DNA of 48,584 nt from positions 1 to 48,584 of the forward strand of contig CANMWZ010000034.1 in the NCBI GenBank assembly GCA_947501605.1, read 5' to 3'. Made by a program: the position numbers and the translations under genes. Below, piece by piece: positions 4,190 through 19,165 of the stretch (positions within the stretch are counted from its first letter, which is position 1; each line of letters begins with the position of its first letter). The notes below the pieces were generated by a model. It was not told the origin of the DNA, did not search any database, and worked only from the letters and a program-made list of their open reading frames with translations. Origin of the DNA: Planctomycetota bacterium. Lineage in GTDB: Bacteria; Planctomycetota; UBA1135; UBA2386.

Positions 4190-6619
4190 ATGCGGAGCTG
4201 GACCCTCGCGGTGCTCGGTTCGATCATGGTCGCCTGCAGCGATCCTGCGGATTCGACGCCGCCGTCGCCGGCGGAGCAGGTGGCGGCCCTGGCTGCGGTC
4301 GAGCGCGGGCAGTGCGTTCGCTGTCACCCGGCGGCCACCGCGGACGCCCTGTTGCCGTCGGACCGGCCCAAGGTGCCGCTTCGCCAAGCCTCGGCGTTTC
4401 ACCACGGCGCCGCGCTGGCCATTTACTTGCGCGCGCACCACGGCGCCGACGACAGCGAGGCGATCGGAGCCTACCTAGGTGGCGCAACTCCTGCCGAACT
4501 GCAGCGCGCGACGATTGCCGCTGGCTCGATCGAGGCCGGCGTGCGGCTCTTTGGCGAACTCGCCTGCATCGCCTGCCACGAGCAGGGCGGCATCGATGGC
4601 TTGTCGCGGCGGACCGACCACGCGCATCTGTTCGCCTTCTTGCGCGAACCGGCCGCGCGCCGACCTGACCTCGTGCACGACTTCGCGCTCACTGCTGGCG
4701 AGGCCAGTGCGCTCGCAGCCTTCCTGCTGCGCGACCAACTGGAGGACCAAGGAGCCGCGCCCCAGCCCGGACTCAGCTACGAGTGCTTCGAGCTGAACGT
4801 GCGCGGCGCCGAGTTGCCCGAGCTCGGTGGATTGCAGCCGGCCGCCAAAGGTGTCACCGACCATGTCGACGTCGACGTGCGCACCCGCGACGATCAGTTC
4901 GCGCTGCGCTTCCAGGGCTTGCTGCTGGTGCCGCAGACCGGCGAATGGACGTTGACGGTGGGCAGTGACGACTCGTCGTGGCTGTGGGTCGACGACGTGC
5001 TGCTCATCGAAAACGCGCAGGTGTCGCCGCACCGTCGGCGCAGCGCCACCCTGCGCCTGGAGGCCGGGGCGCATCCGCTGCGGATCGTGTTCACCGAGCT
5101 CGGTGGTGGCGAGAGCCTCGAGTTCCTCTGGCGCGGACCTGGGGTGAAGGAAGAAGTCGTGCCGAAGGCGGCCCTGTCGCGCAACGCGATCGGTCTGCAG
5201 CCCAAGGTCGAGGCGGCGCTCGCGGTCGAGCCAGGCGTGCGCGAGCGCGGTGCGCGTGCGTTCGCGGCGCGCAGTTGCCTTGCCTGCCACGAGCTCGCTG
5301 GCGCTCCGGAGCTTGCACCTGCTGTGCGCAAGCCATGGCGGGAACTCGGCGATGGCGACTGCCAGCGCGTGGCGACAGGTCGAGCGGTGCTCGCGCAGGC
5401 GCGACGCGCGCTGCGGATCGAGCCGTCGCCGCAGGTCCTGTTGGCGGCGCAGCTCGCCGTAGACGGCTGCACCTCGTGTCACGTCCGCGACGGTCAAGGT
5501 GGACTCGCCGCCGAGGTGCGTTCGCGACTCGCAGAGATCGAGGATATTGGCGATGAAGGTCGCCTACCGCCCGAGTTGACCGGTGCTGGTCATCGCCTAC
5601 GGTCGTCCTGGCTCGCGGGCGTACTGACGGGCGAGCACCGCGTGCGCAGCTACATGCGCGCGCGCATGCCCCGCGTCGCCAGCGAACTCGCCGAGCGGTT
5701 GACCCGTGCCTTCGTCGTCGCCGATGCCGTGGCGGCGGACGATCAGGAGCCGGCGTTTGACGCCGCCATGGTGACGCGCGGCCAGCAGCTCGTCGGCATC
5801 GACGGGCGCAATTGCGCCACCTGCCATCCATTCGCCGGTCGTCGCGCCATCGGGCCGCAAGGCATGGACCTCGCACTCCAGCACCAGCGTCTCAAGCCGC
5901 AGTGGTTCGCCGACTGGCTGTTGCATGCGACGACCCTGCGTCCGGGCACGCGCATGCCGGCTTTCTGGTTTCGCGACGATGTGGCGGCCCGCGCCGATGT
6001 GGCGGCGATCCGCGCATGGTGCTCGCTCGGCGATGCGGCCCCGGTGCCAAAGGGCTACGCCAGCACGACGATCGGGCTCGAACTCGATCCGATCGAGCGA
6101 CCGATCCTGCACGGTGCCTTCCTGCAGGGTCTCTCGGCGCGCTGTGTTGCCGTCGGCACGCCGCTGCGCGGCCACTTTGCGTACGACCTCGAACACGCTC
6201 GCCTCGCGTGGCTGTGGCGCGGCCCGTTCCTCGACGCGAGCGGCACCTGGAGTGGGCGCGCTGGCATGTTGCTGAAGCCCTTGGCAGACGACCATGTCGA
6301 ACTCGAGCCGATGCCGATGGTGGACGTGGCCGGCGGCGCCGGTGCGGCCGAAGTTCGCAGCATCGGGCAGCGGCGCGACGCGGCGGGCTATCCGGTGTTC
6401 CGATTGGCGGTGGGCACGGCCGAGGTCGAGGACTTCGTGGTGCCAGAGCTGCAGGCGGGCGGGGTGCGCTTCGTGCGCACGATCACATGCGTGCGCGGCG
6501 AAGTGCGCGTGGAGGCGGCGGCGCGGAGTGGGCGCGTGACTGTGGCGATCGGGAGCGAGCCAGCGTCGGCTCGGGTGCTGAAGGCGGGGGAATCGATGGT
6601 GCTGCGCTACTCGTGGTGA
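4190..6619 (+). CDS. Lipoprotein multiheme c-type cytochrome with PA14 domain
   Basis: Lipobox MVAC. Five CxxCH motifs (CVRCH, CIACH, CLACH, CTSCH, CATCH). PA14 motif FALRFQG...GSDDSSWLWVDD. PGTRMP motif. Confidence 0.85.
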   Translation: MRSWTLAVLGSIMVACSDPADSTPPSPAEQVAALAAVERGQCVRCHPAATADALLPSDRPKVPLRQASAFHHGAALAIYLRAHHGADDSEAIGAYLGGATPAELQRATIAAGSIEAGVRLFGELACIACHEQGGIDGLSRRTDHAHLFAFLREPAARRPDLVHDFALTAGEASALAAFLLRDQLEDQGAAPQPGLSYECFELNVRGAELPELGGLQPAAKGVTDHVDVDVRTRDDQFALRFQGLLLVPQTGEWTLTVGSDDSSWLWVDDVLLIENAQVSPHRRRSATLRLEAGAHPLRIVFTELGGGESLEFLWRGPGVKEEVVPKAALSRNAIGLQPKVEAALAVEPGVRERGARAFAARSCLACHELAGAPELAPAVRKPWRELGDGDCQRVATGRAVLAQARRALRIEPSPQVLLAAQLAVDGCTSCHVRDGQGGLAAEVRSRLAEIEDIGDEGRLPPELTGAGHRLRSSWLAGVLTGEHRVRSYMRARMPRVASELAERLTRAFVVADAVAADDQEPAFDAAMVTRGQQLVGIDGRNCATCHPFAGRRAIGPQGMDLALQHQRLKPQWFADWLLHATTLRPGTRMPAFWFRDDVAARADVAAIRAWCSLGDAAPVPKGYASTTIGLELDPIERPILHGAFLQGLSARCVAVGTPLRGHFAYDLEHARLAWLWRGPFLDASGTWSGRAGMLLKPLADDHVELEPMPMVDVAGGAGAAEVRSIGQRRDAAGYPVFRLAVGTAEVEDFVVPELQAGGVRFVRTITCVRGEVRVEAAARSGRVTVAIGSEPASARVLKAGESMVLRYSW

Positions 6620-6876
6620 GATCTCCATGAAGCCTCGGCCAAGACCCGGGGCGGATCGAGCATCGAGGCCACCATGCGGATGGGCACTTCGTCTAGGCCT
6701 CGGTGAGCATCCTTAGTGCGTCTTTGCGCGTAGGCACCGTCCGCGGATTCGCCGCACCGCTGCGAGCTACCGTTCTGGACAGCGCCAGCACGGTGTTCTC
6801 GAGGCCGCGGACGAACAACGCGTCCTTCCGCCGCGGCAACGCACCGCTCATGATGAACTCTCTCCCCGAGCCATTC

Positions 6877-7461
6877 ATGACCCAGAAGATCGCCGTGATC
6901 CCAAGTTCCGGCAACGACCCCATCCGTGTGCTGCAGGAAGAGCACGTGCTGATGATCGAGGTCATCGACGCCATGGCAACCGAGTCGCGCCACTTGCTGA
7001 CCGGCATGCCCCTGCGCAAGGACTTCTGGGCGCGCACGGTCGAGTTCCTCGAGCACTTCCTGGACCGCCTGCATCACGAGAAGGAAGAGCAGTTGCTGTT
7101 CCCCATGCTCGAGCACCTCGGTTTCGGCCACGACCACGGGCCACTGCTGGCGCTCCGGAGCGAGCACCTCGAAGGGCGCCGAGAGGCGCGCGGCATCCTG
7201 TCGGCGCTCAACGCCCGCGACGGCGAACGCCTCGCGCACACGTGTCTGATGTTCTGCCGGCGCGAGCGCCAGCACATCGACCGCGAGGAGGTCCTGCTGC
7301 TGCCGCTGGCCCGCGAGTCACTGCAAGGGGAGGCGCTTTTGCAGTTGCGGGCTGCGTTCGATGCGCACCGCGACACTCTGGATCCGACCATCTACGCCCG
7401 CTGCATCGCCATCCGTAGCCACCTCGGCCGCGAACTCGGCGTCGAGACCTTCGCGAATTGA
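6877..7461 (+). CDS. Hemerythrin/HHE cation-binding domain protein
   Basis: L..EH, HHEKEEQLLFP, EH..GR and HIDREE..LLP motifs. Start set at ATG 6877. Confidence 0.88.
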   Translation: MTQKIAVIPSSGNDPIRVLQEEHVLMIEVIDAMATESRHLLTGMPLRKDFWARTVEFLEHFLDRLHHEKEEQLLFPMLEHLGFGHDHGPLLALRSEHLEGRREARGILSALNARDGERLAHTCLMFCRRERQHIDREEVLLLPLARESLQGEALLQLRAAFDAHRDTLDPTIYARCIAIRSHLGRELGVETFAN

Positions 7462-7534
7462 GTCCGGCGGTGCCGAGAGTCTGATCCCTGGCCCGCACGT
7501 CGCGAAGGCCGCTGCGCGCGACTACGCTGCGCCA

Positions 7535-9022
7535 GTGCTGACCCGATCTAGCCGCGCGGTGTCGATCTCCCTCCTGTGGGCGCTGTCGGCGCTGGCGCAG
7601 GAGCCTGCTTCGCCCGAGCCCGTGGCGGCTGTGCCCGACAGCCTCGACGGACGCTACGTCGAGATTGTGGACGTGAAGGTGCCCGACGGCATCGTCCTCG
7701 AGGTCGGCGGGATCGCCGAGCGCGACGGCGAGCTGTTCGTGTGCACCCGGCGCGGTGAGGTCTGGCGGGTGCAGGACCCGTATGCCGCGGCACCGAAGTT
7801 CCACTTGTGGGCCGAGGGTCTGCAGGAACCTCTGGGACTCCTCGACCACGACGGCTGGTTGTATTGCGCGCAGCGCGGCGAACTCTCGCGCCTGCGCGAT
7901 CGCGACGGTGACGGGCGCATGGATGACCTCGAGACCGTCGCCAGTGGGTTTCCGTTGTCAGGCAACTACCACGAGTACTGCTTTGGCCCAGCCCTGCGGC
8001 CCGACGGTTCGATGTGGCTCACGACCAACAAGCCGTTCGGCGACGAACCGTTTGGGCGGGCGCCCTTCCGCGGCTTTGCGCTCGCGGTGCAGAAGGATGG
8101 CACCTGGACCGCCGAATGCGCGGGGTTGCGGTCGCCAGCCGGTGTCGGCACGTCGCCAGAAGGCGAGGTGTTCTACACCGACAACCAGGGCGAATGGTGC
8201 GCGTCGAGCAAGTTCGCGGTGCTCGAACGCGGCGACTTTCACGGTCATCCGTGGGGCATCGATTCTTGCACCGACCCACGCAGCAAGGTCGAGCATCCCG
8301 GCGAGGTACCTAGCGGGCTGTCGATGCAGGAAGCCGCGCGCACGGTGAAGGGTTTCCGCCTGCCGGCCGTGTGGATCCCGTACGACGAACTCGGCCGTTC
8401 GCCGGCGGGGTTCGTGTGGGACGAGAAGGGCGAGTTCCCGCCGTATCGCGGCCAGGTCTTCTGCGGCGACCAATACAGCTCCGAGGTGTTCCGCATCTCG
8501 ATCGAGCGCGTGCAAGGCCGCTGGCAGGGCGCCTGCTATCCGTTCCGGCGCGGGCTCGACTGCGGGGTGTTGCGACTCGCGTGGGCCAAGCAAGGCGGCC
8601 TGTGGTGCGGACTCACCAATCGTGGCTGGGGCTCGCTCGGCAAGCGCGAGCAAGGCCTGCAGCGACTGTCGTGGCGGGGCGAGACGCCCTTTGACCTCTT
8701 GGAAGTGAAGGCAACCGGCGATGGTTTTTCGCTCACCTTCACCGCTCCGGTCGATCCGGCGTCGGCGACCGCAGCGGCAATCGCCATCAAGAGCTTCACC
8801 TACGACCACCACGAGTCCTACGGCTGCCCGCCGCGCGACGTGCGCCCGCACACGGTGACCGACGTCGCCGTCGACTCGGATTCGCCATTCTTGGTGCGCG
8901 TGTCGGTTGCAGACCTGAGCGACTGCCGCGTGTATGCAGTGGATGCGAGTGCCGTGAAGGCTCTGGACGGCACGCCGCTCTGGCACGGCAAGGCCTGGTA
9001 CACGCGCAACAGGGCACCCTGA
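7535..9022 (+). CDS. Secreted glucose/sorbosone-dehydrogenase-like beta-propeller protein (PVC 'large multifunctional' type)
   Basis: Signal peptide; GLQEPLGL, DRDGDGRMD, GNYHEY.FGP, GLRSPAG and YTDNQGEW motifs. GTG 7535 lies 6 nt after a TACGCT -10-like box. Confidence 0.8.
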   Translation: MLTRSSRAVSISLLWALSALAQEPASPEPVAAVPDSLDGRYVEIVDVKVPDGIVLEVGGIAERDGELFVCTRRGEVWRVQDPYAAAPKFHLWAEGLQEPLGLLDHDGWLYCAQRGELSRLRDRDGDGRMDDLETVASGFPLSGNYHEYCFGPALRPDGSMWLTTNKPFGDEPFGRAPFRGFALAVQKDGTWTAECAGLRSPAGVGTSPEGEVFYTDNQGEWCASSKFAVLERGDFHGHPWGIDSCTDPRSKVEHPGEVPSGLSMQEAARTVKGFRLPAVWIPYDELGRSPAGFVWDEKGEFPPYRGQVFCGDQYSSEVFRISIERVQGRWQGACYPFRRGLDCGVLRLAWAKQGGLWCGLTNRGWGSLGKREQGLQRLSWRGETPFDLLEVKATGDGFSLTFTAPVDPASATAAAIAIKSFTYDHHESYGCPPRDVRPHTVTDVAVDSDSPFLVRVSVADLSDCRVYAVDASAVKALDGTPLWHGKAWYTRNRAP

Positions 9023-10115: not shown

Positions 10116-10781
10116 TCACTGCGCGGCCGGCGCGGACCTCATGGCAAGTTGTGCGCGCGCTTCCCGGCGGCCTGTCCACAGCAAGAACGCAGTCAGGAGG
10201 AAGACGCCTGTTGCAAAGGTGCCGAGCAACACCGATCCGAACCGCGGCCAACTGTAGGTCATGAAGTTGGCGATCTGCTTCTGTCCGAACACGACCGGCA
10301 TGAACGGTTCCATGCGCATCGGTGCCTTCGGGTCGAGGTTGTGGCCGAACTCCCACAGCATGAAGATGAATCGAGCCAGCGCGACCATCGTCACGTAGGC
10401 GGTGATCATCGACAGGTCGATCAGTGCACGGACGTTGCCGAGCGCCGCGCACCGCAGGGTGAGGAGCGCGATCGCTACCAAGCCGAACGGCATCCAATCG
10501 AGGTCGCGAAGCTCTTCGCGCGTGATGCGCGCCATGCCGATGTAGTGGTTCAGCGTGTTGATCTCGGCGAGGTCATGTCCGGCGTTGCCGGCCGTGAGTC
10601 GGGAGGCGTGGATGTCGAGCCAAAGTCCCTTCGGGTACTGCGGCGCCGTCATGCTGATGCGCCACAACGGGAACAAGAAGCTCGCCAGCAACGGCACGAC
10701 CAGCAGCACGAGCAGGAGTCGTGAACGACCGCGAAGAGGCATGTCGAGATAGTCCGGAAATGACGACGCGCGGTGGTTCAT
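10116..10781 (-). CDS. nosB: NosB-type membrane protein of clade II nos clusters
   Basis: PLWRISM.APQYPKGL, EINTLNHYIGM, FGHNLDPKAP and KQIANF...SWP signatures; about four TM helices. Confidence 0.85.
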   Translation of the reverse strand: MNHRASSFPDYLDMPLRGRSRLLLVLLVVPLLASFLFPLWRISMTAPQYPKGLWLDIHASRLTAGNAGHDLAEINTLNHYIGMARITREELRDLDWMPFGLVAIALLTLRCAALGNVRALIDLSMITAYVTMVALARFIFMLWEFGHNLDPKAPMRMEPFMPVVFGQKQIANFMTYSWPRFGSVLLGTFATGVFLLTAFLLWTGRREARAQLAMRSAPAAQ

Positions 10782-10810
10782 GGCAGTACTCGAGGCGGCG
10801 CAACGCTCGC

Positions 10811-11650
10811 TCAGACGAGGTCGCGGTTGCGGAAACGCGATAGGGCATGGAGCCAAGCGGTGGCGCCGAGCAGTAGGGGCCAGCAAGTCCCGAGCAGGAA
10901 CAGGCCCGTCGAGCCGATGCGGTTGGCGAGCCAGAACCCGACCGGCCCGAAGGTCGATAACTCAGGCTGTGCGGAAGCCAGAAGTGCGAGGCGTGCAGCT
11001 TGGACCGGGTTCGTTGCCGCCAGCGTGAAGACTGCAACGGGCGGCAGTCGCCACTGCAAGAGCAGGCCGACGAGTCCGAAGTCGAGGAACGCGACACTCG
11101 CGGCCCAGACCAGCACCGTGATCATCAGTGCCTTTGCTTGATTGCGAACGAATGTCGAGATCCAGAGGCCAGTGGCGACGAAGCAAGCGAGTAGCGATGT
11201 GCCGACGACCAGGGCGCGGAAAAGGAACTCCCACGGCACTCGCTGGTGGAAACAGGAGCTCCCGACGATCGCCATCAGGGGCATCGCCACGAGCAGCGGG
11301 ACGACGAGCGCGAGCAATCGCACGAGACTCGTGCCGCAGAACCACCCGGTCCGAGACACCGGATTGCTGAGCATCAGTTCGAGCGACCCGTCGTCGCGCG
11401 CCGAGTTCACGACCTGCGCGGTCGCGACCAATGCGAGCAGCGGCAGCAGGAAGATCAGTGCGTGGCTCAGCGACATCAAGGCGCGGCCCATCCCGGTGAA
11501 TCCGAGCACGGACGACTCTCGCAGTCCGACCAGGACGAACGCGGCGGCCAGCAGCGTGTGCACGAACAGGCAGGACAGCAGCCAGCGCGAGCGGCGCACC
11601 TCGGCGAAGTCGAGGCGCGCGACGATGGCGACCTGGGATCGGAGGCTCAT
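10811..11650 (-). CDS. nosY: NosY ABC transporter permease (Cu/CuZ maturation)
   Basis: About six TM segments; LPLLALV...DGSLELMLSNPVSR and NPVQAARL motifs; nos context; start overlaps the nosL stop. Confidence 0.88.
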   Translation of the reverse strand: MSLRSQVAIVARLDFAEVRRSRWLLSCLFVHTLLAAAFVLVGLRESSVLGFTGMGRALMSLSHALIFLLPLLALVATAQVVNSARDDGSLELMLSNPVSRTGWFCGTSLVRLLALVVPLLVAMPLMAIVGSSCFHQRVPWEFLFRALVVGTSLLACFVATGLWISTFVRNQAKALMITVLVWAASVAFLDFGLVGLLLQWRLPPVAVFTLAATNPVQAARLALLASAQPELSTFGPVGFWLANRIGSTGLFLLGTCWPLLLGATAWLHALSRFRNRDLV

Positions 11651-12105
11651 CGTCGCACGCCTTCGTTCCGTGGGTGGAGACAGCGGTCGCGCGCAGTTGC
11701 GAGATCGATCGCGCCAGCCGTTGCGCGCGGCACGGCACCGAGGCCGAAGCCCATCGGCGTCGCTTCGACCGCGACGAAGGCGACCTCGGCAGCCGAGATC
11801 CAGCCGTCTCCGCGCAGCTGGTGGAACCAAGTCGCGTGGACTTCACGGGGTTCGTCTGCCGCGAACTGGAACAGGCAGCCGGGGTCGTCGAACATCGCCA
11901 CGGTGCCGTCACGCAGCACCATCTGCGCAGCGAACGGCGGCTCGCCGAGGTGCATGCGGCAGTGAGCGCACGACGCCTTGTCCCACACGACTGGCACAGG
12001 ACTGTCGGGCAGGGTGACGCTGGCGAATCCGGCGAACGCGAGCGCGGTCGCGAGGATTGCGGCAATGCAGGCGAACAGGACGCGGTGCAGTCGGTGGGGG
12101 TTCAT
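11647..12105 (-). CDS. nosL: NosL copper chaperone
   Basis: CAHCRM, FDDPGCL and TPMGFG motifs; N-terminal membrane anchor. Confidence 0.88.
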   Translation of the reverse strand: MNPHRLHRVLFACIAAILATALAFAGFASVTLPDSPVPVVWDKASCAHCRMHLGEPPFAAQMVLRDGTVAMFDDPGCLFQFAADEPREVHATWFHQLRGDGWISAAEVAFVAVEATPMGFGLGAVPRATAGAIDLATARDRCLHPRNEGVRR

Positions 12106-12142
12106 CTCCGTGCTCCTGGGATGGTATTCGAGGTGTCGAAGC

Positions 12143-13021
12143 TCAACTCGCGACGGCGCGGACCTCGTTGCGTTCGAGGTCGCGGGCAAGCACGTCGACG
12201 ACGTCGCTGCCGAGTTCGCGGAAGGCTGCGGCAACGAGGTCTGCGCGGGAGTCCTGCGCGATTGCGCACTGCCACCAGCCGGTGCTGCCGAGGACGAAGC
12301 CGCGGGCTGTGAGCCAAGTCACTGCGCGTTCCCCGTAGGCCCGCAGTTCGACCACGGACTCCGTGTGCTCGGCGAGGTACAGACAGGATGCGCCCTGCCA
12401 GATCATGCGTCCGTCGGACAAGACCACGACGCGATCGACGTGCTGGCGGATCTCGTCGAGACGGTGCGAGCACAGCAGCACGGTCGGGCACTGTGGTAAC
12501 TCGTCGAGCACTCGGTAGAAGGCGGCGCGACTCTGTGGATCCATGCTTGCAGTCGGTTCGTCGAGGATCAGCAGGTCCGCATCGGTGGCGAGCGCCATTG
12601 CTGCCAGGACCTTCTGCCGCATGCCTCCGGACAACGCGCGGAACGGACGCCGTGCAATGCTCCTGAGGTCGAGTTCGAAGCGCTCGGCGACGGCGTCAAT
12701 GCGCCTGGTCTCGATGCCCCGCAGGTCGGCGACGGCATGGACCAAGTCGTGGACCGTGGCCCAGAGTCGAGGTGCGATCTGCGGTACGTAGGCGATCCTG
12801 CGCGCCAGCTCGTTGCGATGCGCTGCTGGGTCGAGCGTATCAAGGCGGATCGAGCCGTTGCCGGTGAGCATTCCCATCAGCAGGCGAACGAGAGTCGACT
12901 TGCCGGAGCCATTGGGACCGACCAAGGCGGTGCGGCTGCCGCTGGCGAGGACGAGGTCGATCCCGACGAGAGCATCGACCTTGGCGAAGCGCTTGCCGAC
13001 CCCGTGGAGTTCAACGCGCAT
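12143..13021 (-). CDS. nosF: NosF ABC transporter ATPase
   Basis: Walker A GPNGSGKS, signature LSGGMRQK, Walker B LILDEPT; lies between nosD and nosL/nosY. Confidence 0.9.
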   Translation of the reverse strand: MRVELHGVGKRFAKVDALVGIDLVLASGSRTALVGPNGSGKSTLVRLLMGMLTGNGSIRLDTLDPAAHRNELARRIAYVPQIAPRLWATVHDLVHAVADLRGIETRRIDAVAERFELDLRSIARRPFRALSGGMRQKVLAAMALATDADLLILDEPTASMDPQSRAAFYRVLDELPQCPTVLLCSHRLDEIRQHVDRVVVLSDGRMIWQGASCLYLAEHTESVVELRAYGERAVTWLTARGFVLGSTGWWQCAIAQDSRADLVAAAFRELGSDVVDVLARDLERNEVRAVAS

Positions 13022-14330
13022 GGTCAGGTTCCTGGTGCAGTGGCCGCGGGACGAAGCGCGGTTCCGGTTCGTAGAGAAGTGGCTGTTCGTCGCGCAACAG
13101 CAGGCGCGGAGCGAATAGCGGCAGCAGGTGGCCCATCAGGTCGACTGCATGCATCGCCGGGGCGCCGTGGAGGAGAGCGAGGTCGGGGTAGCGACCTTCC
13201 AGCTGGCTCGAGAGGCGGCGGTGCTCGAACGGCACGTCACCGACGCCGTCGTCGTTGAGGTCGTAGCCCTGATAGGTGTCGTAGTAGTTGCCTCTGAAGT
13301 CGCAGCCGAGAGCATCGCCGTCGCCACCGACCCCGATGAGAGCGCTGTTGTCGGCGAACAGGTTGGCGCGGAACTCGTTGCGGTTCGACTTCGCGTGCAG
13401 CAGCACGGCGGTGTCACAGAGGCGGAAGACGTTGTGGTGGAACCAGTCCCGGTGGGCGGGATCGAGGGGCGAGGTGTCGAGATAGACGCCGATCGTGTCC
13501 TGCACGAACCAGTTGTCCTCGACTCGTAGATTGCCTGACTCCTTGACGCCGAGGCCGATCCCGGCTGATCCAGCGGCGCGCGCGAGCAGGTTGCGTCGCA
13601 TCAGCAGGTCGTGGCTGTACATCACGAACACCCCGACGACGTCGTCGACGAAGGCGTTGTCCTCGCAGATGTTGTCGTGGCTGAACATGAAGTGCGTTCC
13701 GTAACGGCAGCGTTCGATGGTGTTGCTGATCACGCGATTTCGCGACGAGTACCAGACGACCACGTCGCGATGGTCGCGTACCACGTTGCCGCGCACGGTC
13801 GAGTCGTCGGTCTCCCACAGGCGAATGCCGTCGCCGCGCATTCCCATGGCCTCGTCTCCAGTCCCGAGGATCACGTTGTCGCGCACGACGACCCGCTTCG
13901 ATTGGTGCACCAGGACACCGAAGAGTGAGCGTTCGATGGTGATCTCGGCGACCTCGATGTCGCAGCCTGATACACGCACGGCGCTGTCCTGCAGGTCCAG
14001 GCGCGGGCCGCTGTTCCTGATGGTGAAGCCGGTGATCTTGCTGCCGTCGCCGCAGAGGTCGACCACGGTGCCGAGGCCGTTCCCGTCGATCACGGCCTCC
14101 ACCGGTCCCTGCAGCGTGACCGCACCTTCGATGCGAACCGGGCCGCGGTGTACGCCGGGCAGCAGGGTGAGAACGTCGCCGTCCACGGCGGCGTCGATGC
14201 GGGGCTGCAGTGGATCGCCGGGCGCGATCGCGACACCGCCGATCGGCAGCGCGCGTGGCGCGACCGGCGGCGGTGTCGCGTCGACGCACGCAGCAGCGAG
14301 CAGCAACAGAGTGTGGACGGGACGGTGCAT
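13011..14330 (-). CDS. nosD: NosD periplasmic beta-helix maturation protein
   Basis: RGDGIRLW, RYGTHFMFS, GVFVMYS and GNYYD.YQGYDLNDDGVGDVPF motifs; possible lipobox AAAC. Start moved to ATG 14330. Confidence 0.93.
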   Translation of the reverse strand: MHRPVHTLLLLAAACVDATPPPVAPRALPIGGVAIAPGDPLQPRIDAAVDGDVLTLLPGVHRGPVRIEGAVTLQGPVEAVIDGNGLGTVVDLCGDGSKITGFTIRNSGPRLDLQDSAVRVSGCDIEVAEITIERSLFGVLVHQSKRVVVRDNVILGTGDEAMGMRGDGIRLWETDDSTVRGNVVRDHRDVVVWYSSRNRVISNTIERCRYGTHFMFSHDNICEDNAFVDDVVGVFVMYSHDLLMRRNLLARAAGSAGIGLGVKESGNLRVEDNWFVQDTIGVYLDTSPLDPAHRDWFHHNVFRLCDTAVLLHAKSNRNEFRANLFADNSALIGVGGDGDALGCDFRGNYYDTYQGYDLNDDGVGDVPFEHRRLSSQLEGRYPDLALLHGAPAMHAVDLMGHLLPLFAPRLLLRDEQPLLYEPEPRFVPRPLHQEPDHAR

Positions 14331-14356
14331 GGCGTGCCTCGTGGTGCGCTCGGGGG

Positions 14357-16315
14357 TCAGCGCGGTTCGACGAGCAGGTAGCCCGCCATCTCGAGGTGCA
14401 GCGCCGAGCAGAACTCGGTGCAGTAGAACGGGTAGACGCCGGCTCTCTTGGCCGTGAACACGACGTTGCTGTGCTTGCCAGGTTCGAGGCTCAGGTTGAT
14501 GTTGTGCGAACCGATCGCGAGGCCGTGGGTCGCGTCGTGCGCCTGCTCGACGTTGGTCACGTGGAGGTGGACGACGTCGCCTTCCTTGACGCGCACGATG
14601 TCGGGTGTGAAGTGGCTGCGCACCGTGGTCATCCATACGTGCACCCCGTCGTCTTTACGTTCGATCCGCTCCTTGCCGGCGGTGACTGCGTCTTTGTCGA
14701 CTCCCTCGTGGAACGGGTTCGTGCCGATCGGTGAGTACACTTCGATGGGCTTCAACTTGTCCGCCTTGATCATCTGCGCGTAGTGCGGCTCGCCGAGCGG
14801 GATAGGCATGTCATAGAGACGCGTCATCTTTTGGCCGCCGATGTCGACGAGTTGGAAGTTCTGTGGCAGCAGCGGGCCGACCGGTGCGAAGCGATCGAGC
14901 GCCCACTTGTTCATCGCGATCAGGTACTTGCCGTCAGGGCTGACCGTGTCGCCCTCGGCCGCGCACAAGTGACCGATGTTGAAATGCGTGTCGATCTTGT
15001 CGATGAGCTTGAGATCCTTCAGCGACCACTTCGCGACCACCGATTCGATGAAGACCGAGGTGTAGGCGTTGCCTTGACCATCGAATTGCGTGTGGAGCGG
15101 ACCGAGTCCGATTTCGCACTGGCCGCGGATCGACTCCTTGAAGTCGAGAATCGGGATCCCGTAGGGGTCGCGGCCGATGAACTTCTTCTGCTCTGCGAGC
15201 GCGCGGATCTTCGCGATGCTGAAGACGGTGCAGTGCGTGTCGAGTTTGCCGCCGACGACGATGTCCTCGCCGTCCGGCGTGATGTCGACGCCATGGGGGC
15301 TCTTGGGCTCAGGCACCAGGTAGAGAAGACCCTCGTCGATCGCGGTCTGCATGCGGATGACGCGCATCTTCGCGATGGTCTCGGTCTTGCCCGCCTTGGC
15401 GACTTGCTCTGCCTTGCGCCAGTTGATGCAGTGCAAGTAGTCCATGTCGTTCTGCGTGGAGCCTGACTCGAGCGATGGCTTGCCCTCGAGAATCCCACCC
15501 CACGCGCGCTCGGTGTTGATCGAGTTGCAGAAGACCCAACCGTCGCTGCCCTTCTTGCCGGCATCGGCGAGGTCCTGCATGTAGGGCGGCAGTTCGATCG
15601 CGAACGACTGGTCCTCGACGATGCGGCCCTTCTCTTTGTCGAACTTCCAGAAGATCATCGCACCGCGGTACTCGGTGTCGAACTGCTCGAGCGGAGCGAA
15701 CCGACCGCCGAGCGGCGCCGGGTACTGCGACGTCTCGATGACGTAGTCCGTGTCCGGGGTGACGAATGCGGCCCCGTGTTCCGATTGCAGCAACTCGCTG
15801 GCGACGATCTGCTTGGTCATGAAGTCGCGCAGGTCGATCACCGCCATGCGCGGATTGGCCTTGTCCCCGATGAACAGGTAGCGACCGTCGTAGTCGCCAC
15901 CGCTCTCGCTGAGGGCCGGATGATGGGTGTCCGCCCAGGTGAGCGTGGTGCCGGCGCGGTCGCCGGCCTTCAGCACGTCGCCGCTCTCGTCGCCATATCC
16001 GTAGCCCTGCCAGGGCTCGGGTGTGAACACGGCGATGTACTTCAGGATGCGCATGCTCGGCACCCCGATCACGATGATGTTGCCGCCGTGGCCACCCGAC
16101 GCGAAGGTGTAGTAGTCGTCGTGACGCCCGGTGGGCATGTAGGTCTGCACTGCGGCCTGGACGTCGGCCTCGGACAGGTTGCGTTCTGCGACGATCGAGC
16201 GCACGTCGCTGCCGAGTGCGGACGGCGCAGCGCTGCTCCCGGGATCGCCGCAGGAGGCAGCAACTGCGACGGTCGCGACGCAGAGCCAAGGCAGGGAACG
16301 AGAACGAGTGGTCAT
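14357..16315 (-). CDS. nosZ: Nitrous-oxide reductase, clade II (Sec/lipoprotein signal, no Tat motif)
   Basis: All seven CuZ His present (DTHH, SEHG, SPHG, GPLH, NIGH, EPH). CuA site ATHG...CTEFCSALHLEM. Clade II features SGGHGG, GVPSMRILKYIAVFTPEPWQGYG and GPLLPQNFQL. Signal ends in AASC. Confidence 0.97.
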   Translation of the reverse strand: MTTRSRSLPWLCVATVAVAASCGDPGSSAAPSALGSDVRSIVAERNLSEADVQAAVQTYMPTGRHDDYYTFASGGHGGNIIVIGVPSMRILKYIAVFTPEPWQGYGYGDESGDVLKAGDRAGTTLTWADTHHPALSESGGDYDGRYLFIGDKANPRMAVIDLRDFMTKQIVASELLQSEHGAAFVTPDTDYVIETSQYPAPLGGRFAPLEQFDTEYRGAMIFWKFDKEKGRIVEDQSFAIELPPYMQDLADAGKKGSDGWVFCNSINTERAWGGILEGKPSLESGSTQNDMDYLHCINWRKAEQVAKAGKTETIAKMRVIRMQTAIDEGLLYLVPEPKSPHGVDITPDGEDIVVGGKLDTHCTVFSIAKIRALAEQKKFIGRDPYGIPILDFKESIRGQCEIGLGPLHTQFDGQGNAYTSVFIESVVAKWSLKDLKLIDKIDTHFNIGHLCAAEGDTVSPDGKYLIAMNKWALDRFAPVGPLLPQNFQLVDIGGQKMTRLYDMPIPLGEPHYAQMIKADKLKPIEVYSPIGTNPFHEGVDKDAVTAGKERIERKDDGVHVWMTTVRSHFTPDIVRVKEGDVVHLHVTNVEQAHDATHGLAIGSHNINLSLEPGKHSNVVFTAKRAGVYPFYCTEFCSALHLEMAGYLLVEPR

Positions 16316-16349
16316 GGGGCGGGTCTCCGGTTCAGGGTGGTGGAAGCGC

Positions 16350-16766
16350 CTAGCGCGCCGCGAATCCGCGGACGATCGCAACCAGGTGCTGCAGTAATTC
16401 GGTCTTGCCCTTCAGCTGCGGTTGCGCAGGCATCTGCGCGCTCTTGCCGACGGCGCCGCCGCCGAAGAGCACGGTCTTTTGGATCTGTTCATCCGTGACG
16501 GACGCTTGCCATGCAGGGTCGGAGAAGCTGCGTGGGCGCGGGTCGCACGCGGCAGCGCCGGGGCCGTCGCCGTGACCGGTGGTTCCGTGGCAGGTCACAC
16601 AGAGAGACTGGAAGGCCTCGTTGGCCTCCTTGCGCGCGGCCGGGATCCCGAACTGGCGTCCGGAACGTGAGCTTTCGCTGCTTTTGCCGCAGGAAGTGGC
16701 GAGCGCAGTCAAAGCAAGGAGCACGAGCGTGGTCGTGGAGAACAGGGTGCGGTTCGTAGGGATCAT
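16350..16766 (-). CDS. Monoheme c-type cytochrome lipoprotein (probable NosZ electron donor)
   Basis: Lipobox ATSC; CVTCHG..G.GDGP, P.PRSF and distal Met in SAQMP. Start moved to ATG 16766. Confidence 0.88.
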   Translation of the reverse strand: MIPTNRTLFSTTTLVLLALTALATSCGKSSESSRSGRQFGIPAARKEANEAFQSLCVTCHGTTGHGDGPGAAACDPRPRSFSDPAWQASVTDEQIQKTVLFGGGAVGKSAQMPAQPQLKGKTELLQHLVAIVRGFAAR

Positions 16767-16804
16767 GGTGTGTTCGGACGGTCTTGGACCGTGGGGGCGG
16801 GTGG

Positions 16805-17485
16805 TCAGCGCGCGAGCACGCGCGGGAACAGCACGTGGTTCTCGAGGTGGATGTGTTGCATCACGTCCCGCTCCAGTTGTTCGAGCCCCAGATAGAGGGC
16901 GCGCCATGTCGCGCAGGCCGAAGGCGGCGGCACGTAGTCGTGAGCAAGTCGGCGAAGGGCCTCGAGGTTCGCGCCGTGATCCTGGTGCTCGTGCTCCATG
17001 ACTTGGATCGGGCCGGATGCGTGGCCGCCGTGGCCTGCCCGGAGCATCGGGAACAGGACCTGCTCTTCCTTCTGCATGTGCCGTTCGAGTTCGTCGGCGC
17101 AGAACTCGAGATGAGCGGCGAGGCCGTTCGGGCGGTCGGCGCGGTCTGCATGCACGGCCTCGACCTTCCTCGCCATGGCGATGAGCCGCGGCAGTTCTGT
17201 CCGGTGCGCGTCGTGGTAGTGGCTGAGCAGATGGTCGATCAGCTCGCCCACCGGGCGCTCGTCCCACCGGATGCCATCCTCGGTGGGATTTAGCTCGCGG
17301 TGCAGTTCTGCGAGGAGTGCTTCGGGAGCCAGGTTTCGGGTCGCGCAGGCCTGCCGCAGCGTCTGGTGCCCTCGGCAGCAAAAGTCGAGGCCGTGGCGTT
17401 GGAACACGCGCGCTGCGCCGGCGAACCTCGTGGCGATTGCCGCCAAGGTCTCCTGCGGCTCGATCGGAATGGCGGGTTCGTTCAT
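16805..17485 (-). CDS. ytfE: Di-iron YtfE/Ric/DnrN/NorA-family protein
   Basis: ScdA_N motif GLDFCCRG plus hemerythrin-like motifs HYH..HR.ELPRL, HMQKEEQVLFP and HIHLENHVLFP. Confidence 0.93.
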   Translation of the reverse strand: MNEPAIPIEPQETLAAIATRFAGAARVFQRHGLDFCCRGHQTLRQACATRNLAPEALLAELHRELNPTEDGIRWDERPVGELIDHLLSHYHDAHRTELPRLIAMARKVEAVHADRADRPNGLAAHLEFCADELERHMQKEEQVLFPMLRAGHGGHASGPIQVMEHEHQDHGANLEALRRLAHDYVPPPSACATWRALYLGLEQLERDVMQHIHLENHVLFPRVLAR

Positions 17486-17496
17486 GCCCTGCAGTA

Positions 17497-17510
17497 GCAC
17501 GGGCCGTGCC
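17497..17510 (-). promoter_or_regulatory. sigma54 (-24/-12) promoter of the ytfE-nos operon
   Basis: Minus strand reads cGGCACGGCCCGTGCt, i.e. GG-N10-GC matching TGGCAC-N5-TTGC. It sits next to a GAFTGA-containing activator gene. Confidence 0.85.
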
Positions 17511-17549
17511 GCTTGTTTGGTCCTATGAAAGAAGGACTTGGGAGCGTCC

Positions 17550-17610
17550 GTTGTCGAGTCGACAACAGCATTGCGCTGCGAATCCGACAACACGTTGTGA
17601 CCATGGCAAC
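17550..17610. promoter_or_regulatory. Three NorR-type enhancer boxes (GT-N7-AC core)
   Basis: Site 1, 17550-17566 GTTGTCGAGTCGACAAC (perfect palindrome). Site 2, 17575-17591 GCTGCGAATCCGACAAC. Site 3, 17594-17610 GTTGTGACCATGGCAAC. Sites 2 and 3 each have one core mismatch. Confidence 0.8.
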
Positions 17611-19165
17611 ACGAAGCGAGTTCGAACTGCTCCTGCGGATTGCCCAGGACATCACCTCCGCTTTGCCCAAGCAGAGTCAGGAACAGCGACTGGTCGAAGC
17701 CGTGCACGCAGCGATCCCGCAGAGCGACGCGGTAGCGCTACTGCGCCTTCATGGCGACGAACTCGTCCCCATCGCGGTTCATGGACTCGGTCCGGAACTG
17801 CTCGGTCAGCGCTTCCGCCGTGCTGAGCATCCGCGGCTCGACGCGATCTGCGGCAGTGAGGGGCCCCTGCGCTTTCCGGCCGATTGCACGCTGCCGGATC
17901 CGTTCGATGGCTTCGTGACCGGACCTAGCTCACTCACGGGCACGGTGCACAGCTGCCTTGGTTGTCCCTTGCGCATCGAGGGGCGTCTTGTCGGTGTGCT
18001 GACGCTCGATGCGATCGAACCTCGCGCGCTCGATCGCTTGGACTCCGTCTTCGTCGATGTGATTGCTGCCTGGACCGCAGCAGCACTGCGCACCGGCGAT
18101 CTCCTGGCGGCGCTGGAGCGGCAGTCGCAGATCAAAGGGCAGATCGCGCGGGAACTCGTCCGCGATGCGTTGGTGCAGCAGGGCGGGCTCCTGGTCGGAC
18201 CGAGTGAGGCGATGATCCGCCTTCGCAGTGAGATCGACCAGGTCGCGAGCGCTGACTTCCCCGTGCTCGTGACCGGTGAGACCGGGACCGGAAAGGAACT
18301 GGTCGTGCGCACGCTACACGCGCAATCGCAGCGCAAAGACCAACCGTTGATCCAGGTCAACTGCGCGGCGTTGCCTGAGTCGGTTGCCGAAAGCGAGTTG
18401 TTCGGGCACACGAAGGGCGCGTTCACGGGCGCGACCTCTGTTCGGCTCGGCAAGTTCCAGGCGGCGGATGGTGCGAGCCTGTTCCTCGACGAGATCGGGG
18501 AGCTGCCCCTGCATCTACAGCCCAAGCTGCTGCGTGTGCTCCAGACCGGCGAAGTGCAGAGCATCGGCAGTGACTCGCTGCGTCGGGTCGACGTTCGCGT
18601 GTTTGCTGCAACCAACCGCGATCTCGAGGCCGAAGTGCGAGCCGGGCGCTTCCGGGCTGACCTGCTCTACCGGCTCGACGTCTGTCGACTGCGGTTGCCG
18701 CCGTTACGCGCGCGGCTCGACGATGTCCTGCCGCTCGCCGGGCACGCCTGCGACCGCATCCGCCGTCAGCTCGGCACCGGACGCGTGCGCTTGCGCGCGT
18801 GCGCTCAGAGCCGGCTGCTGGCATACGAATGGCCTGGCAACGTGCGCGAATTGGAGAACGTCTTGGCGCGCGCCGTGCTGCGGGCATCTGCGCGACGTGA
18901 GCCAGGAGGCCAAGTCGAGATCAGCGCCGAAGACCTCGGGATCGAGCCGAGCCGGACGGAACCAATGCCCCACGAGGCGAAGTTCGCGGCAGTGCGGACG
19001 GCCGCGGTGCCGGTGCCGCTGCGCACCAGCGTGCTCGACTACGAGCGGACACTGGTCCAGAGCGCGCTGTGCGAGTGCGATGGCAATTGGGCGCAAGCGG
19101 CAGCTCGACTCGGCATGCACCGCAGCAACTTGCACCACTTGGCGAAGCGACTCGGCCTGCGCTGA
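17603..19165 (+). CDS. norR: NO-responsive sigma54-dependent activator NorR (GAF-AAA+-HTH)
   Basis: GAF domain with the non-heme Fe ligand motifs HPRL, LPDPFDG, SCLGCPL and LTLDA. GETGTGKE, ESELFGHTKGAFTGA and WPGNVRELEN. HTH NWAQAAARLGMHRSNLHHLAKRLGL. Confidence 0.93.
   Translation: MATRSEFELLLRIAQDITSALPKQSQEQRLVEAVHAAIPQSDAVALLRLHGDELVPIAVHGLGPELLGQRFRRAEHPRLDAICGSEGPLRFPADCTLPDPFDGFVTGPSSLTGTVHSCLGCPLRIEGRLVGVLTLDAIEPRALDRLDSVFVDVIAAWTAAALRTGDLLAALERQSQIKGQIARELVRDALVQQGGLLVGPSEAMIRLRSEIDQVASADFPVLVTGETGTGKELVVRTLHAQSQRKDQPLIQVNCAALPESVAESELFGHTKGAFTGATSVRLGKFQAADGASLFLDEIGELPLHLQPKLLRVLQTGEVQSIGSDSLRRVDVRVFAATNRDLEAEVRAGRFRADLLYRLDVCRLRLPPLRARLDDVLPLAGHACDRIRRQLGTGRVRLRACAQSRLLAYEWPGNVRELENVLARAVLRASARREPGGQVEISAEDLGIEPSRTEPMPHEAKFAAVRTAAVPVPLRTSVLDYERTLVQSALCECDGNWAQAAARLGMHRSNLHHLAKRLGLR

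Follow-up and report, generated by a model that had tools for sequence, protein, structure and literature searches.

The contig of 48,584 nucleotides (nt) analysed here (the window; contig C34 of assembly G000, 4.65 Mb and 91% complete) carries a gene for NorR, a nitric oxide (NO)-sensing activator of sigma54 promoters, which diverges from an operon for nitrous oxide (N2O) respiration, ytfE-cytc-nosZ-nosD-nosF-nosL-nosY-nosB, where cytc stands for the gene of a mono-heme c-type cytochrome (cf. Table 1). All genes, their order and their strands were found as described in the initial annotation of this DNA, and so was the tight packing reported there (gaps of 40 nt or less, or overlaps): from ytfE to nosB the consecutive distances on the minus strand are 38, 34, 26, -11, 37, -4, and 29 nt, that is, two overlaps and a largest gap of 38 nt. 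The ATG at 17603 was taken as the norR start rather than a longer open reading frame from TTG at 17513, and 117 nt then separate it from the ytfE ATG (17485).

The activator is a NorR with an intact iron site, as initially proposed. Its match to the NorR model exceeds the cut-off, the next-best family is NifA (313.7 bits, below the NifA cut-off), PF01590 and PF00158 are both matched, the GAFTGA motif is intact at residues 272-277, and 242 of 499 aligned residues are identical to Escherichia coli NorR. The iron-site residues R75, D96, D99, H111, C113, and D131 of the E. coli protein are conserved as R78, D99, D102, H116, C118, and D136. Two deviations were noted: Y98 is replaced by F101 and R81 by G84. 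In E. coli, R75, Y98, D99, H111, and C113 are required for the iron centre, and R81 for GAF-mediated repression, the R81A variant being constitutive (PMC2941729). Across 132 full-length NorRs (10 of 142 loci lacked a full-length match and were left out), R75, D96, H111, C113, and D131 are invariant and D99 is kept in 129; the Y98 position holds F in 53 and the R81 position R in only 26, so R81 is not family-wide and both deviations appear ordinary for NorR. Loss of R81 as a hallmark of nos-linked NorRs was considered and rejected, because the position varies throughout the family. A tree of the same set grouped the window NorR with those of two related genomes, G002 and G018. The close named homologues are mostly from Planctomycetota, in keeping with a planctomycete host, and four genomes of the host's order recur with the same contig coordinates in a phylum sample built around a Pirellulaceae genome; a PDB search returned matches to AAA+ domains only and no solved NorR GAF structure.

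These residues bear on the possibility that the operon is driven by NorR and sigma54 while NorR itself is leaky or senses another input, such as low O2, iron, or redox state, so that nos would not be truly gated by NO. Five nos-linked NorRs were compared at the R81 position and have G, V, A, K, or D there, where substitution gave constitutive activity in E. coli, and no FNR-type O2 sensor was found in G000, so another input for anoxia would be needed. Nevertheless, the iron-site residues are near-invariant in the family and all kept in the window, while position 81 is equally variable in NorRs with ordinary targets, and we regard a leaky NorR as very unlikely.

The divergent promoter was scored with two profiles, one for boxes built from the intergenic regions of 16 other norR loci and one for sigma54 sites built from 15, with the window, G018, and E. 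coli excluded from training. The scores agreed with the earlier placement of three NorR-type boxes and a sigma54 promoter between norR and ytfE, the boxes being spaced 19/25 and the exact GT-N7-AC core being present in one of the three. Applied to the E. coli norR-norV region, the same profiles placed their three best box scores in tandem, spaced 21/24 and with a sigma54 site after them, and norV indeed has a three-site NorR architecture in which all three sites are needed (PMC2831303). The sigma54 site of the window is the sole one scoring at least 14 among 97,136 window positions. When the scores of the boxes ahead of each of 960 sigma54-like sites of the genome were summed, the window promoter reached 39.6 and the next independent candidate 19.9; owing to this gap, it looks like the only NorR target in the genome, which contains two rpoN genes. 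Box 1, lying over the norR start, probably mediates autorepression. The -12 C stands 11 nt from the ytfE ATG, which coincides with the predicted +1, and the ytfE transcript is probably leaderless. A short distance of this kind recurs: among 128 ytfE loci that combine a sigma54 site with an in-frame ATG, 16 have this ATG 10-15 nt past the -12 C, mostly 11-13, and only 6 have it at 16-30 nt. The short-distance loci include the window (17485-17497), L031, L037, L150, L168, L169, L365, L367, L388, L390, L392, L397, and L401, which suggests that planctomycetes have a class of leaderless transcripts made from sigma54 promoters.

The first product of the operon, YtfE, combines ScdA_N and hemerythrin domains and conserves all eight E. 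coli residues checked, namely C30, C31, H84, H129, E133, H160, H204, and E208 (a Cys pair and six iron ligands; list from PMC9052748). The cytochrome is the probable electron donor to NosZ, and a cytochrome c gene stands immediately upstream of nosZ in most related nos clusters. NosZ scores 391.9 bits on the twin-arginine (TAT, clade I) model, under the cut-off of that model, lacks an RR twin-arginine signal at its N-terminus, and contains the CuA and histidine motifs in the form that we take to be typical of the enzyme. The cluster thus has the traits of clade II (Sec-type): a TIGR04246 match, no twin-arginine signal, a nosB (by position only), and no nosR in the cluster. The name NosB is our assumption, based also on position; homologues of this product are annotated only as "hypothetical."

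Table 1. Features of the norR-ytfE-nos locus (positions in the window).
Feature	Position	Strand	Basis
norR, NO-sensing sigma54 activator, GAF - AAA+ - HTH (helix-turn-helix), 520 amino acids	17603..19165	+	NCBIfam NF003451, 624.5 bits (cut-off 476)
Predicted NorR box 1, overlaps the norR start codon	17595..17609		Profile 10.7; one mismatch in the GT-N7-AC core
Predicted NorR box 2	17576..17590		Profile 9.9; one core mismatch
Predicted NorR box 3, near-perfect palindrome	17551..17565		Profile 19.0; top single site in the window and in the 4.65-Mb assembly
Predicted sigma54 -24/-12 promoter	17496..17512	-	GG 17510-17509, GC 17498-17497; score 16.5
ytfE/norA (RIC), di-iron protein, 226 amino acids	16805..17485	-	NF008221, 268 bits (cut-off 254); TIGR03652 also over cut-off
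cytc, mono-heme c-type cytochrome, lipoprotein-like N-terminus	16350..16766	-	PF13442/PF00034; one CxxCH
nosZ, Sec-type (clade II) N2O reductase	14357..16315	-	TIGR04246, 835.7 bits (cut-off 625)
nosD	13011..14330	-	TIGR04247, 345.6 bits (cut-off 300)
nosF, ATP-binding cassette (ABC) ATPase	12143..13021	-	PF00005 and position
nosL, copper chaperone	11647..12105	-	PF05573, 22.8 bits, marginally below cut-off 24; named by conserved position
nosY, ABC permease	10811..11650	-	PF12679 and position
nosB-like membrane protein of clade II clusters	10116..10781	-	No family match; conserved position in related nos clusters

Beyond the operon, the region 4190-9022 has genes for a cytochrome c protein (multiheme/PA14), another hemerythrin (6703-7461), and a DUF7133 protein. 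They run towards the nos operon, with a GNAT gene in between, and synteny with G002 appears to extend to the GNAT, DUF7133-like, and hemerythrin-like genes.

Control of ytfE by NorR and sigma54 is very probable, and the question is whether it extends to nos. No terminator-like site was found in any intergenic gap; a scan of 9.5 kb gave two sites against 4.5 expected, of which one lies within nosB and the other at the promoter, on the opposite strand. Neither an Rrf2 operator nor an FNR box nor a second sigma54 site was found ahead of cytc in the window, and the 9.5 kb hold a single sigma70-like site, no more than chance would give. The spacing and the lack of other signals argue for one transcript. 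Among RNA libraries, eight runs from four studies contain part of 13500-18500, and four of them, all from one freshwater-sediment study, reach a share of 0.77-0.90. Contigs from runs X1 and X3 span all 30 bins including the flanks, although assembled contigs carry no strand or single-transcript information; one X3 contig crosses the divergent promoter, as DNA carry-over would yield likewise, and runs X2 and X5 are deeper over nosZ, runs favouring the gene by which they were found.

Alternatively, NorR and sigma54 might drive ytfE only. The nos genes would then be transcribed independently of NO, from a promoter within the 3' portion of ytfE or the 38-nt gap, and their position next to ytfE might reflect nothing but the clustering of nitrogen-oxide genes. 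The gap holds a 6-bp hairpin that could be cited for this; as a terminator it was rejected, because it has no U-tract and is not conserved in G018 or G002, and no promoter or operator motif was found ahead of cytc. Precedents from known systems are the control of norA alone by NorR in Ralstonia solanacearum (PMC9045102) and the division of the Pseudomonas stutzeri nos genes into several transcription units (PMC5582078). The evidence from G002, given below, cuts both ways.

To place the layout in context, norR loci were surveyed in 339 genomes of the order and in samples of 151-241 genomes from five other groups. A NorR GAF match was present in 86 genomes of the order, a nosZ match in 46, and both in 17. 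As the divergent target, 29 of the 90 norR loci have ytfE-qNor, 27 have ytfE followed by no queried gene (some end at a contig edge), and ytfE-ferredoxin and ytfE-norCB account for 8 each. A further 7 have norC(B) and 2 have qNor, hmp and a lone cytochrome c occur once each, 5 targets are unknown genes, and ytfE-cytc-nos is found in 2, namely G000 and G018, which belong to different genera. An NO reductase is therefore the target in 46 of the 90, and the layout of the window is rare rather than common. Outside the order, nos was the norR target in none of 18 other planctomycete loci, none of 12 from Burkholderiales, and 1 of 20 from Myxococcota. Among 80 metagenomic ytfE loci, many of them short, qNor came next in 24 and cytc-nosZ in none, and one locus, L197, has norR facing nos; a scan of contigs for full-length NorR (80 loci) was dominated by generic AAA+ activators and returned three full-length NorRs, none beside nos. 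The NorR GAF query had no match in 151 Gemmatimonadota or 151 Acidobacteriota genomes, sets without a positive control, and a paired search of 201 Myxococcota genomes gave NorR and nosZ matches in nine, never on one contig, with a nosZ query that missed the clade I nosZ of G402 and so under-reports clade I counts. In the eight loci with ferredoxin behind ytfE (Fer4 and DUF3470; L037:5458-5796, L038, L150, L167, L169, L175, L351, L395), this protein is a direct candidate for the reductant of YtfE, which is probably a ferredoxin (PMC9052748).

The cytc-nosZDFLYB cassette is conserved throughout the family, mostly under other apparent control. G018 retains the layout, boxes, and promoter of the window, with the exact GT-N7-AC core in all three boxes and identities of 69% for NorR, 56% for YtfE, and 79% for NosZ. 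Most other copies lie opposite a gene for a fasciclin lipoprotein, one for an Rrf2 protein, or both, and have a palindrome, ATGGA-N8-TCCAT, ahead of cytc; the Rrf2 proteins carry a Cys-x5/6-Cys-x5-Cys-x2-His (Cys3His) motif of the Fe-S type. In leave-one-out scoring, this operator reached at least 10 in 15 of 17 training loci and in one rrf2 locus outside them, and at most 7.7 in the window and G018. The training loci were picked by eye and four fasciclin/rrf2 loci outside the set scored low, so the Rrf2 operator is only a candidate. The corresponding candidate Rrf2 regulon for clade II nos comprises L041-L045 and L136-L151, where the divergent genes for the fasciclin lipoprotein and Rrf2 often have a second palindrome ahead of them. 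In two genomes the cassette is preceded by an FNR-type box at about -105. In G021 (L053:6070-8830), hemerythrin-cytc-nos lies opposite a GAF-sigma54 activator that lacks the NorR iron ligands; nos has hemerythrin genes beside it in L049, L054, and L163 as well. In L054 (8556-10470, G027) nosZ is split over two overlapping frames by a frameshift or a sequencing error. In G236 (L153), a sigma54 site scoring 14.2 precedes cytc, norR lies 0.8 kb upstream on the same strand, and rpoN converges on nosB; as a case of NorR control of nos it is possible only, since its three boxes are at the norR start, 2.3 kb from that promoter, with no promoter next to them. The nos cluster of G287 retains an Rrf2-type operator and adjoins a norR module in tail-to-tail orientation, which favours the view that NorR serves ytfE only.

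In a FastTree phylogeny of 44 NosZ sequences (5 of 49 loci were excluded because their NosZ is partial or split), a clade (0.77) of the window, G002, and G018 is sister to the Rrf2-type set within a clade of 0.997. The NorRs of these three group at 1.0, beside NorRs serving ytfE alone; in the closest of the latter (L032 and L165), ytfE is not followed by norB. These trees fit best with two units that already existed and were joined, norR<>ytfE thereby becoming the promoter of the cytc-nos cassette, although the direction of the swap is inferred. The initial annotation had likened the locus to a norR<>norA-norB module in which nos has replaced norB; the likeness stands, ytfE-qNor being the commonest target, while a literal replacement of norB is not supported by the closest NorRs.

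The history of G002, a sister species in the genus of the window, 65% complete, and with the same flanking genes, provides the main support for the NO-independent alternative. Its nos genes are intact and under purifying selection (NosZ is 87% identical to that of the window), with identities of 0.89/0.93/0.67 by codon position. Before cytc (L040:7676-8250) there are only a recognisable 3' remnant of ytfE (E 9e-8) and an inverted 5' piece of norR with its boxes (70% nucleotide identity), and first and second codon positions have decayed in both. This decayed copy indicates that the NorR layout predates both species and that nos outlived the loss of NorR. On the other hand, the remnant has decayed at all codon positions (0.59/0.66/0.59), and the inversion aims the old norR promoter region at nos, where it could act as a substitute and possibly constitutive promoter.

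Moreover, NorR faces nos without an intervening ytfE in two other loci, which speaks against ytfE as its only target. In the metagenomic L197, norR faces cytc'-nosZ(clade II)-nosB-nosD-nosF-nosY, in which NosZ is 57% identical to that of the window and far from it in the NosZ tree, the cytochrome is an unrelated membrane-anchored cytochrome c, and ytfE lies behind norR with its own sigma54 site; the promoter has a sigma54 site of 16.3, boxes of 11.4 and 6.7, and a third GT-N7-AC read by eye. In L329 (G402, from the Myxococcota sample), norR directly faces a TAT-type clade I nosZ (898 bits against a cut-off of 625), a NosR-like gene, nosD, and nosF; its boxes score 13.0, 14.1, and 7.1 and are spaced 20/24, and a sigma54 site of 11.1 lies 45 nt further. 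The NorRs of both loci are on other tree branches than that of the window. Such repeated origin, in one case with the promoter leading straight into nos, is an argument for selection rather than accident behind NorR control of nos. The NorR of L197 is sister to that of G172, in which norR faces a homologue of the L197 cytochrome c with no nosZ behind it (L373), probably a relic of an L197-type layout.

If NO is the cue, its source matters. The initial annotation had noted that the window holds no nor, nir, hmp, hcp, nosR, or FNR gene, and this extends to the assembly as far as profile cut-offs and similarity searches reach. No nirK or nirS exceeded the cut-offs (TIGR02376, PF02239), and with nosZ present the genome fits a non-denitrifying N2O reducer. 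Globin (hmp), flavodiiron (norV), and Crp/FNR profiles gave no match over cut-off; qNor, cNorB, hcp, and narK were not found; and the sole NrfA-family match is marginal and covers 50 residues. The scores of the two PF00115 proteins, 370-480 bits, compare with 165-215 for the NO reductases of relatives, and these proteins match cNorB at no more than 23% identity, so both are taken as O2 reductases. Matches to E. coli NarG, NapA, NirB, and Hmp were no better than partial or low in identity (22-28%), NarH gave one 80-residue match, and NrfA, Hcp, Fnr, NsrR, and NorV none; only a weak partial nosR-like match exists elsewhere in the genome, and no orthologue of the relatives' Rrf2 was found. G018 likewise has no qNor and only short partial matches to NirK and NirS. 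A Crp/FNR-family helix-turn-helix, absent over cut-off here, was present in 14 of 14 control genomes, and GlnB is also absent from the matches; either unusual losses or assembly gaps would account for this. With no respiratory enzyme for NO production or reduction found, the NO cue would be largely external or derived from nitrite.

In E. coli, NO relieves GAF repression of NorR, and a hexamer on three boxes opens the sigma54 promoter. By analogy, NorR dimers would occupy the three boxes of the window, NO bound at the GAF non-heme iron would free the AAA+ ring, and the hexamer would start transcription at or beside the ytfE ATG into a single unit of about 7.4 kb carrying ytfE, cytc, nosZ, nosD, nosF, nosL, nosY, and nosB. 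NO from neighbours, chemodenitrification, or nitrite would serve as a proxy for anoxia with N2O at hand, and N2O respiration would be switched on together with the di-iron NO-handling protein YtfE. We assign a probability of about 0.7 to this reading, that is, to a promoter swap that has made N2O respiration NO-inducible through NorR and sigma54, and NorR control of nos itself is probable to the same degree.

Several observations weigh against it: (i) only one of the three boxes has the exact core, the others being one base off, and E. coli needs all three sites; (ii) G84 replaces the repression residue R81, a weak objection given the family; (iii) nos stays selected without NorR in G002 and is thus expressible without it in that lineage; (iv) the clade of the three NosZs has a support of only 0.77; (v) the promoter scan covers planctomycete sigma70 promoters poorly, and the hairpin lies in the ytfE-cytc gap; (vi) NorR acts on norA alone in R. 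solanacearum, and 27 of 90 norR loci of the order show none of the queried genes behind ytfE; and (vii) of two positive controls in G000, FklB was found and GlnB was not, which together with 91% completeness makes the absences likely, not proven. Weighed with the terminator scan, the decay in G002, and the two loci without ytfE, they leave nos on a promoter of its own an unlikely explanation.

The purpose of NO induction could also be repair, NosZ and its maturation proteins being remade with YtfE after damage to metal centres, which would be compatible with the same wiring. A sigma54 promoter is essentially silent without its activator, so in the absence of a second promoter NO would be needed for any nos expression, and in L329 and L197 the unit facing NorR has nos without ytfE; both points make a repair function quite unlikely here. 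In its favour, the Fe-S-type Cys3His motif of the relatives' Rrf2 also points to redox or NO stress, and YtfE, which heads the operon, may according to published proposals repair iron centres or sequester NO (PMC9052748). Since E. coli YtfE reduces nitrite to NO (PMC9052748), a more speculative extension of NorR control of nos, which we consider doubtful though worth stating, is a self-amplifying nitrite/NO switch, in which YtfE, in a cell where no other nitrite or NO reductase was found, would convert trace nitrite to cytoplasmic NO that re-activates NorR, and by this positive feedback a non-denitrifier would eavesdrop on the denitrification of its neighbours and commit to N2O respiration; a wiring evolved at least three times, in both nosZ clades and two phyla, would then suggest a recurring N2O-sink strategy.

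NosZ is the main biological sink of N2O, and many clade II carriers can make neither NO nor N2O. As to the cue for their nos expression, the locus would offer a compact answer for one lineage, a 117-nt control region plus one well-understood regulator family. If NorR does control nos, N2O uptake by such cells would hinge on NO or nitrite from others rather than on N2O or anoxia alone, which would bear on enrichment, modelling, and bioaugmentation; because the wiring is rare, its global weight is probably small. The order also provides a natural comparison of one nos cassette placed behind NorR/sigma54, a candidate Rrf2 operator, an FNR-type box, or another GAF activator.

As to novelty, which the initial annotation had suggested, no description of NorR boxes or a sigma54 promoter on nos was found in searches of the open full-text literature. 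However, NO as a cue for nos is already known, and the wiring recurs elsewhere, so that only the NorR/sigma54 route to nos looks new. The NorR targets given in the main text of Rodionov et al. 2005 (PMC1274295) are norVW, norAB, hmp, hcp, dnrN, and nnrS, and nos is not among them; the first gene of the window operon (ytfE/dnrN) fits this regulon, while the seven genes behind it, for N2O respiration, lie outside. The same study places nos under DNR/NnrR and predicts its control by NsrR in Photobacterium profundum, which resembles the window in that a nitrosative-stress sensor would have taken over nos in one lineage, but NsrR is an Rrf2 repressor. A norR close to nos has been noted in Halomonas (PMC8014003), and cnorB and nosZ of Methylophaga have been loosely suggested to be regulated by sensors such as NorR (PMC5710167); these accounts, as far as they go, report no divergent norR-nos, boxes, or sigma54 site on nos, and both organisms have NO reductases.

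Among the systems known in detail, norR<>norA-norB of Cupriavidus necator (Ralstonia eutropha; PMC1274295, PMC2831303) shares with the window the divergent norR, the three boxes, the sigma54 promoter, and YtfE/NorA as the first product, whereas in the window a cytochrome c gene and a full clade II nos cluster follow ytfE, with no norB there and no NO reductase found in the genome. The E. coli norR<>norVW pair has the same regulator family, iron-site residues, three similarly spaced sites, and a first box at the norR start; it differs in its target (flavorubredoxin versus N2O respiration), in having R81, and in the distance from the last box to the sigma54 site (67 nt versus 53 nt in the window). 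NO induces nos through DNR/DnrD/NNR in Pseudomonas and Paracoccus (PMC5582078), and these regulators, like FixK2 of Bradyrhizobium, turn on nos in response to NO or low O2, as is proposed for the window. They are, however, Crp/FNR-family proteins acting on sigma70-type promoters in complete clade I denitrifiers, while the window has a GAF-iron enhancer-binding protein with sigma54 in a clade II non-denitrifier. The arrangement is real, intact, rare, and built of known parts, and it would represent a variant of the way in which NO controls N2O reduction, one that has arisen more than once.

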